Made by a program: the position numbers and the translations under genes | Notes under the pieces: model-generated | Databases searched by the model: none | The model's input: only the letters and a program-made list of their open reading frames with translations | What the model was told of the DNA's origin: nothing | Sequence record: OR339795 | Direction: 5' to 3' (one strand) | Length of the DNA: 64,000 nucleotides | DNA from: Escherichia phage phi456 | Part shown: piece by piece, positions 46,979 through 48,593 of the stretch | Position numbering within the stretch: position 1 is the stretch's first letter | How the letters are laid out: each line of letters starts with the position of its first letter

Positions 46979-47097
46979 AATTATGCCTCACTGTATTGAC
47001 AACACAGAGCCTGAAGCTCTGACCTACTGTTTCACCCATGATCCATGCTGGGGTAATCTAACAACATTGCGCTGTGTGTAAGATGAGCAATGCATAG

Positions 47098-48293
47098 GGA
47101 AGGTGCGAACAAGTTCCTGATATGAGATCATCATATTCATCCGGAGCGCATCCCAGAGGGACATCATGAGCCATCAACTCACCTTCGCCGATAGTGAATT
47201 CAGCACTAAGCGCCGTCAGACCCGAAAAGAGATTTTCCTCTCCCGCATGGAGCAGATTCTGCCATGGCAGAATATGACCGCTGTCATCGAGCCGTTTTAT
47301 CCCAAGGCGGGCAATGGCCGACGGCCCTATCCGCTGGAGACCATGCTGCGTATTCACTGCATGCAGCATTGGTACAACCTGAGCGACGGTGCCATGGAAG
47401 ATGCCCTGTACGAAATCGCCTCCATGCGCCTGTTTGCCCGATTATCCCTGGATAGCGCCCTGCCGGATCGCACCACCATCATGAATTTCCGCCACCTGCT
47501 CGAGCAGCATCAACTGGCCCGTCAATTGTTCAAGACCATCAATCGCTGGCTGGCCGAAGCAGGCGTCATGATGACCCAAGGCACTTTGGTGGATGCCACC
47601 ATCATTGAGGCACCCAGCTCTACCAAGAACAAAGAGTAGCAACGCGATCCGGAGATGCATCAGACCAAGAAAGGCAATCAGTGGCACTTTGGCATGAAGG
47701 CCCACATTGGTGTCGATGCCAAGAGTGGCCTGACCCACAGCCTGGTCACCACCGCGGCCAACGAGCATGACCTCAATCAGCTGGGTAATCTGCTTCATGG
47801 AGAGGAGCAATTTGTCTCAGCCGATGCCGGCTACCAAGGAGCGCCACAGCGCGAGGAGCTGGCCGAGGTGGATGTGGACTGGCTGATCGCCGAGCGTCCC
47901 GGCAAGGTAAAAACCTTGAAGCAGAATCCGCGCAAGAACAAAACGGCCATCAACATCGAATACATGAAAGCCAGCATCCGTGCCAGGGTGGAGCACCCGT
48001 TTCGCATCATCAAGCGGCAGTTCGGCTTCGTGAAAGCCAGATACAAGGGGCTGCTGAAAAACGATAACCAACTGGCGATGTTATTCACCCTGGCCAACCT
48101 GTTTCGGGTGGACCAAATGATACGTCAGTGGGAGAGATCTCAGTAAAAACCGGAAATAACGCCAGAAATGGTGGAAAAAATAGCCTAAATAGGCTGATTC
48201 GATGTGTTTGCGGGAAAAAAATCGGCCCAGATCCGCGAAATTTTAATCAGCGAGTCAACTTGGGAAGAAATGACCTGCTTATTCGCACCTTCC
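47098..48293 (+). mobile_element. IS5 copy 2 (1196 bp) between coi and loxP; transposase carries an in-frame TAG
   Basis: Termini ggaaggtgcgaa...; 4-bp direct repeat ATAG at 47094-47097 and 48294-48297; inverted relative to copy 1. Confidence 0.9.
47166..48146 (+). pseudogene. ins5A: IS5 transposase with premature stop
   Basis: TAG where copy 1 has CAG (...KNKE-stop versus ...[10 protein letters not shown]), splitting the frame into the 47166-47639 and 47655-48146 ORFs. Confidence 0.85.
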
Positions 48294-48417
48294 ATAGCTG
48301 TAATGCCGTTGTATAAGGTTTCCCTGTTTGCTCATTTCCTTCTGAGCCGCTCTACAACGCTGAAGACACATTAAATAGTGAATCCAAAGTCGTATTACGT
48401 AACGGCGGCAAAACTAT

Positions 48418-48434
48418 AATTTATTAGAGCAATT
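48418..48434 (-). promoter_or_regulatory. C1 operator-like site
   Basis: Reverse complement attgctctaataaatta, 16/17 consensus match. Confidence 0.6.
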
Positions 48435-48499
48435 GTCAAACAACTATGAAAAACAATCCAGTTTTTGGCTGGTGGAGTGGGATTTTTCTCTCAAAATTC

Positions 48500-48516
48500 A
48501 TTGCTCTAATAATTAT
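48500..48516 (+). promoter_or_regulatory. C1 operator-like site
   Basis: attgctctaataattat, 15/17 consensus match. Confidence 0.6.
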
Positions 48517-48559
48517 TGATTTTTATGCGCAGCTGGACGTAAACTCCTCTTCAGACCTA

Positions 48560-48593
48560 ATAACTTCGTATAGCATACATTATACGAAGTTAT
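48560..48593. other. loxP: loxP recombination site
   Basis: Exact 34-bp ATAACTTCGTATA-GCATACAT-TATACGAAGTTAT. Confidence 0.98.

Follow-up and report, generated by a model that had tools for sequence, protein, structure and literature searches.

We identify the window (the whole stretch of DNA analyzed here, 64,000 nucleotides long) as a P1-like phage-plasmid region, in which the genes c1, coi, imcB, and imcA stand beside loxP in the order of the P1 ImmC region. The repressor gene c1 (45807–46658, minus strand) is intact and encodes 283 amino acids, as judged from its translation and from the annotations of sibling plasmids. Next to it lie the promoter Pc1 (P99a) and the bivalent operator Oc1ab (46726–46769, minus strand), which aligned to P1 without a difference, and coi (46769–46978, minus strand), an intact gene for the 69-amino-acid C1 inactivator that contains the operator Oc1c (46925–46941). 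The 31-codon gene imcB (46944–47039, minus strand) is also intact, with one difference from P1 in 96 bases. In contrast to these genes, imcA is split into a 3′ part (47058–47097, minus strand) and a 5′ part (48298–48371, minus strand), which were placed by alignment to P1 and correspond to "imcA part 2" and "imcA part 1" in the record of phage RCS47. Alignment to P1 likewise located P1coi (formerly P99d; 48410–48439, minus strand), which lies over the operator Oc1d (48417–48433); the operator Oc1e and promoter P4cre (48500–48545, plus strand), with a single mismatch in Oc1e; loxP (48560–48593), identical to P1; and P2coi (48617–48644, minus strand), which lies over a LexA box (48622–48641) and is identical to P1. 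The genes cra (48783–49004) and cre (49012–50043) follow. The C1 operator consensus is matched nine times in the window, against 0.32 matches expected by chance, and C1 repression is thus still relevant to this element. The segment between the start of c1 and the −10 element of Pc1 (46690–46725) has diverged strongly from P1; the operators and promoter that flank it are identical.

The two parts of imcA are separated by an IS5-family element, hereafter copy 2, which occupies 47098–48293 on the plus strand (1196 bp). Its terminal inverted repeats, GGAAGGTGCGAACAAG at 47098–47113 and GGAAGGTGCGAATAAG (minus strand) at 48278–48293, are exact matches at both ends to the 16-bp repeats of the IS5 family and ISKpn26, GGAAGGTGCGAA(C/T)AAG. 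As is also characteristic of this family, the element is bordered by a 4-bp target duplication, ATAG, at 47094–47097 on the left and 48294–48297 on the right, where the reference P1 sequence (AF234172) has one ATAG at 94518–94521, the empty site. An element with a 4-bp ATAG repeat had been reported in an initial annotation of this DNA, and both copies of the repeat are indeed present; the span given there, 46979–48560, takes in the whole coi–loxP interval, of which the IS itself fills only 47098–48293. The target preference of IS5 is YTAR, from which ATAG deviates at one position. The IS5-type terminal repeat GGAAGGTGCGAAYAAG is matched four times in the 64-kb window (0.00 expected by chance), so that the window holds exactly two IS copies of this type, copy 2 and a second one in hsdS, copy 1.

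The initial annotation had called the element IS5, a name that belongs to a different member of the family. Copy 2 and canonical IS5 (P1 mod749::IS5) share 90.9% identity, with 109 differences, which is below the near-identity of an isoform, and over the last ∼150 bp of copy 2 the identity is 73.7%. By the ISfinder convention, elements sharing more than 95% nucleotide identity are the same IS. The length of 1196 bp and a 326-codon ORF at element positions 69–1049 (47166–48146 in the window) fit the ISKpn26 reference NC_016845, for which a length of 1196 bp and an ORF at 69–1049 are tabulated (PMC8796155). Copy 2 resembles this reference also in its inverted repeats and 4-bp target duplication, and differs from it in having an amber stop at codon 158. 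We classify copy 2 on these grounds as ISKpn26 (IS5 family) and not canonical IS5. With the canonical IS5 of P1 mod749::IS5 and lambda KH100 it has in common the family, the inverted repeats, the architecture of the 326-amino-acid transposase, and the 4-bp duplication, but it is one base longer and is situated in imcA, whereas IS5 of the P1 reference is situated in mod. The PGAP label "ISKpn26 family" was left out of the identity evidence; PGAP names the IS5 copies of K-12 likewise. Copies at least 99% identical to copy 2 occur in thousands of plasmids from Klebsiella and other enterobacteria.

Copy 2 and one ATAG were removed, and the remainder was aligned to annotated P1 AF234172, as had been proposed in the initial annotation for the coi–loxP interval. 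Without the IS, the ImmC region is collinear with AF234172 at 96% identity. The insertion is clean, with no P1 sequence missing in the alignment, and falls at P1 94518–94521, at about codon 25 of the 37-codon ORF imcA (94482–94595). All annotated P1 sites (Oc1a–e, Pc1, P1coi, P2coi, and the LexA box) are present, and a single base in Oc1e is their only departure from P1. The distance from the IS is 119 bp to the coi start codon (46978) and 266 bp to loxP, in agreement with the earlier estimates of about 120 and 270 bp. On its coi side are Pc1/Oc1ab, c1, coi (with Oc1c), imcB, and the imcA 3′ end; on its loxP side are the imcA 5′ end, P1coi/Oc1d, Oc1e/P4cre, loxP, and P2coi with its LexA box. 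The element was thus correctly described as lying in the control interval: it is within ImmC, it splits imcA, and it separates imcB–coi from P1coi and the LexA-controlled P2coi, the two annotated coi promoters, adding 1.2 kb to the distance between P1coi and coi; c1 keeps Pc1/Oc1ab. The accompanying notion of a displaced interval does not hold, since nothing was deleted and every annotated P1 operator and promoter is retained. A 62-codon ORF (48128–48316, plus strand) runs from the IS 3′ end across the right inverted repeat into imcA; it is annotated as a RefSeq hypothetical protein in sibling plasmids and is probably spurious.

The transposase gene of copy 2 (47166–48146, plus strand; 326 codons) is a pseudogene in which translation meets an in-frame amber stop at codon 158 (47637–47639), and PGAP annotates an "internal stop" in this gene in the sibling plasmids pHFQ1 and pSX4-4. 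At the matching position copy 1 has CAG, as the initial annotation had stated. The gene encodes a DDE transposase with an N-terminal DUF772 domain, as in the IS5 family and ISKpn26. Residues 1–157, upstream of the stop, match DUF772 (E = 9e-22; domain at residues 51–124), and most of the DDE_Tnp_1 domain is found in residues 164–326, downstream of the stop (E = 3.5e-32). Because the TAG parts DUF772 from most of the DDE domain, neither fragment contains a complete catalytic core, and copy 2 cannot make its own transposase. Without the unbroken transposase gene of an autonomous element, copy 2 is best described as a non-autonomous, decayed ISKpn26.

Copy 1 and almost every other copy differ from the TAG by one base only, a pattern that sequencing or assembly error could produce, and such an error was a circumstance that the initial annotation had named as fatal to its account. 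However, a 61-mer centered on the TAG has an exact match in 3 of the 3299 matching E. coli records (12,693 places), namely pHFQ1, pSX4-4, and the SX48 plasmid, always at the imcA locus, and in one record (pHFQ1) among the best 5000 plasmid records of PLSDB. pSX4-4 is identical to the window base for base from 45400 to 48593, through the last base of loxP. pHFQ1 has both the TAG and the linked synonymous G>A at 47579 that is seen in the window, and SX4 and SX48, the plasmids of which both carry the TAG, are sheep isolates. An error that recurs in three other, separate assemblies, two of them flagged by PGAP, is scarcely credible, and we rejected this reading; we interpret the TAG as a real C-to-T nonsense mutation (Q158*) that is inherited within one sub-lineage.

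Copy 1 (40219–41413, minus strand), delimited by its terminal repeats and by comparison with IS5, is a 1195-bp chimeric ISKpn26/IS5 element with the target duplication CTTA. It lies in hsdS, pieces of which (39195–40265 and 41342–41632) surround it; hsdS is intact in the sibling pHFQ1. Copy 1 follows copy 2 at 99.7% identity through its first 1045 bp and then, for the last ∼150 bp, matches canonical IS5 at 100%. Descent of either copy from the other, as daughter or parent, was ruled out, the last ∼150 bp being only 73.7% identical. The copy 1 transposase (40365–41345, minus strand) is intact at 326 amino acids, with DUF772 and DDE_Tnp_1 found by domain search, and besides codon 158 it differs at only two residues from the read-through product of copy 2.

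This near identity of the transposases and the intact state of both copy 2 inverted repeats would favor a scenario in which the TAG copy is still mobile by means of copy 1 transposase in trans, and its insertion actively rewires immunity control. The initial annotation had in fact asserted that copy 2 depends on copy 1 in trans; several observations weigh against this. In E. coli K-12, the IS5 transposase acts mainly in cis, its over-expression in trans moved no other IS5 copies, and two point-mutant IS5 copies were immobile beside nine active ones (PMC11677980). The IS probe matches one place only in pSX4-4, which bears the TAG, and copy 1 is a different, chimeric isoform. Moreover, the TAG is always at the ancestral site, with no TAG daughter copies at other sites either in the 3299 matching E. 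coli records or in the best 5000 PLSDB records, and the prophage whose immunity would be rewired is without lpa and pacAB. Rescue of copy 2 by copy 1 is unlikely on this evidence, and continued mobility combined with active rewiring is quite improbable. Copy 2 is most simply understood as dead and fixed in place.

The same imcA insertion is present in 79 complete E. coli genomes, relative to about 698 P1-like ImmC regions; of the 698 genomes that contain this part of ImmC, 566 have an unoccupied site, some with flanks 100% identical to those of the window. In PLSDB, at least 92 plasmids have the complete single-IS arrangement, among them plasmids of Cronobacter sakazakii and Escherichia marmotae, and a junction scan of IMG/VR returned three short contigs only, all ending at the IS. 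coi, imcB, and c1 are intact in every IS-occupied relative examined. Site, orientation, and IS are shared across records, a pattern that fits a single ancestral insertion passed on by inheritance and not a recent event in this plasmid. The records show, at the level of sequence, that ISKpn26 transposed once into the imcA ATAG of an ancestral P1-like phage-plasmid and was then inherited by a widespread lineage.

Phage RCS47 (FO818745; imcA::IS5D-dmsABC-IS5D) is occupied at the same imcA ATAG, in the same orientation, by an ISKpn26-type element ∼99% identical to copy 2, and its record gives imcA in two parts. In RCS47 this element is the left arm of an IS-dmsABC-IS composite. Unlike the window, RCS47 thus has two IS copies, which bracket the DMSO-reductase operon (dmsABC), with an IS1 lodged in the left one; the RCS47 transposase genes have CAG and are unbroken, and pacA, pacB, and full-length ant are kept. 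The plasmids pHFQ1 (AP023428.1), pSX4-4 (CP142401.1), and the SX48 plasmid (CP142795.1) resemble the window in carrying a single ISKpn26 with the TAG in imcA. The element, its site, and the internal stop are already in public annotations and are hence known; in the literature on RCS47 and P1-like phages, on imcA, imcB, and coi, and on ISKpn26, we found no paper discussing the insertion. As a discovery it is minor, an ordinary decayed ISKpn26 at an already catalogued site. Its use is as a lineage marker, imcA::ISKpn26 denoting one clade of P1-like phage-plasmids, many with resistance genes.

The P1 segment 89323–93231, which comprises the 3′ part of pdcB, Olpa/Plpa, lpa, pacA with the pac site, and pacB, has no match in the 64-kb window. 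In place of lpa-pacA-pacB is an IS1 (44644–45411) that abuts a truncated antirepressor gene, ant (45412–45774), the two together spanning 44644–45774. The gene order is phd-doc-pdcA-pdcB′-IS1-′ant-c1, of which the pdcB′-IS1-′ant-c1 part occupies 43292–45774. The pdcB′-IS1-′ant junction was confirmed in pHFQ1 and pSX4-4, where it is annotated, and is annotated in pEC17CM13_2 as well. In P1, lpa, pacA, and pacB are essential (PMC10695390), and the window lacks this set of genes, which a plaque-forming P1-like prophage would carry. With lpa, pacA/pac, and pacB removed by the IS1-associated deletion, lytic growth would not be completed, and the element, provided that no such genes are located beyond the window, is probably a defective prophage. 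The window contains five IS1 copies or fragments (19832–20014, 23534–24298, 28494–29265, 29783–30550, and 44644–45411). The last of these is 91.8% identical to the IS1 of RCS47 and so is a different isoform.

Among complete E. coli genomes, pacB adjoins c1 in 35 of 79 IS-occupied elements, compared with about 485–520 of 566 empty-site elements. Expressed as losses, 56% of occupied and roughly 8–14% of empty-site elements have no pacB beside c1 (p ∼ 1e-14 by Fisher's exact test, which ignores shared ancestry). The association may come from a single clonal IS1 deletion. It fits an IS-bearing lineage that is drifting toward plasmid-only life.

The predicted effect of the insertion is on coi transcription. 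The 1.2-kb element stands between imcB–coi and the promoters P1coi, which is repressed by C1 at Oc1d, and P2coi, which is repressed by LexA. In this position, transcripts from either promoter would have to enter the right end of the IS and cross it antisense to the transposase gene, which is the direction of ins5CB in IS5. These transcripts would probably terminate within the IS, leaving less Coi, while expression of c1, autoregulated from Pc1/Oc1ab, would be unchanged. The net result would be a bias to stable repression, that is, to the plasmid state, with induction linked to SOS or C1 being weaker. When an IS inserts between a promoter and its gene, the effect is commonly polar. Copy 2 is like this known class in that the IS parts intact genes from intact repressor-controlled promoters, and unlike it in that its polarity is a prediction. 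We infer a polar reduction of Coi expression, for which polarity through ISKpn26 in the antisense orientation is assumed.

For IS5, outside transcription is reported not to cross the element, probably as a result of intrinsic terminators, and the element's own promoters are very weak (PMC11677980). Just inside the right end of copy 2, on the coi-sense minus strand, ISKpn26 has a hairpin, AGCCUAUUUAGGCU, followed by U6 (a run of six T; 48195–48182). The hairpin is weak, with a 5-bp stem, a ΔG of −6.5 kcal/mol, and a z-score of −2.8, and canonical IS5 has a different sequence at this stretch. A built-in promoter scan of 46600–48700 returned no sites and was uninformative, since it failed to recognize the promoters annotated in P1; with looser, custom criteria, no strong outward promoter was found at the IS left end. 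A weak promoter-like site (CTTACA, a 16-nt spacer, and a TG-extended TAGATT) is present at 47082–47055 on the minus strand. It consists of native P1 sequence, in the imcA 3′ part between the IS and imcB, is unannotated in P1, and could drive imcB–coi. No credible RNA family was found by Rfam search of 44000–51000. A regulatory consequence of the insertion is plausible; in the plasmid of the window it is probably unimportant, because a bias toward repression matters little when lpa, pacA/pac, and pacB are already gone.

The reading that we favor, and regard as probable, is that the imcA insertion is ancestral and inherited, that Q158* arose in a sub-lineage, and that the IS imposes a polar block on coi, biasing the element to the plasmid state. 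The insertion might instead be without regulatory effect, an IS in a dispensable 37-codon ORF that spread by hitch-hiking on successful plasmids, with enough Coi still made by read-through or by a weak promoter close by, or with the level of Coi immaterial. Several points are consistent with such neutrality. Neither coi nor imcB is needed for P1 plating (PMC10695390), the extended −10 site at 47082–47055 lies downstream of the IS, and coi, imcB, and c1 are retained in all occupied relatives examined. In addition, RCS47 is reported to infect and lysogenize E. coli, according to a review that summarizes the original paper (PMC5011133); as RCS47 bears a larger insertion at the same site and is still a phage, the insertion does not abolish the phage life cycle. 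On the other hand, both coi promoters have been moved 1.2 kb further off, behind an antisense IS with terminator-like hairpins, external transcription is reportedly stopped by IS5 (PMC11677980), and occupied elements lack pacB beside c1 at a far higher frequency, by the count that ignores shared ancestry. We consider neutrality a possible but doubtful account of the insertion.

IS5 is known to activate adjacent genes, as at bgl, glpFK, fucAO, and flhDC, and by analogy P4cre/cra–cre or coi might be stimulated by an outward promoter or by the A-tract-rich IS 3′ end. The 3′ end is ∼220 bp upstream of P4cre, and that of IS5 includes a 177-bp bent, IHF-binding region (PMC11677980, legend of Fig. 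1). Against this, the identity of only 73.7% over the last ∼150 bp indicates that the activating region of IS5 is not conserved in ISKpn26, and the scans did not find an outward promoter, which together make activation extremely unlikely. A stronger version of the polar reading would make the insertion adaptive, with imcA::ISKpn26 depriving coi of its C1- and LexA-controlled promoters and so suppressing spontaneous and SOS induction. We think this unlikely; if true, it would promote the change of P1-like phages into stable resistance plasmids, with decay of lytic genes to follow. The polar block that we favor leads to the testable hypothesis that an IS between coi and its promoters stabilizes the plasmid state, which, if confirmed, would be one concrete step from temperate phage to plain plasmid.

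The sequences on the two sides of loxP have different affinities. To the right, 48577–56227 (cra, cre, c8, ref, mat, res, and the mod 5′ part) is 99.95–100% identical to AF234172 1–7651. To the left, the segment 45400–48593 that is identical to pSX4-4 is only 95.5% identical to P1, and the switch falls exactly at loxP. The window differs from pHFQ1, pSX4-4, and the SX48 plasmid in being P1 proper to the right of loxP and in having the extra chimeric IS in hsdS. This pattern suggests that P1 proper and an SX4-like plasmid recombined through Cre/loxP.
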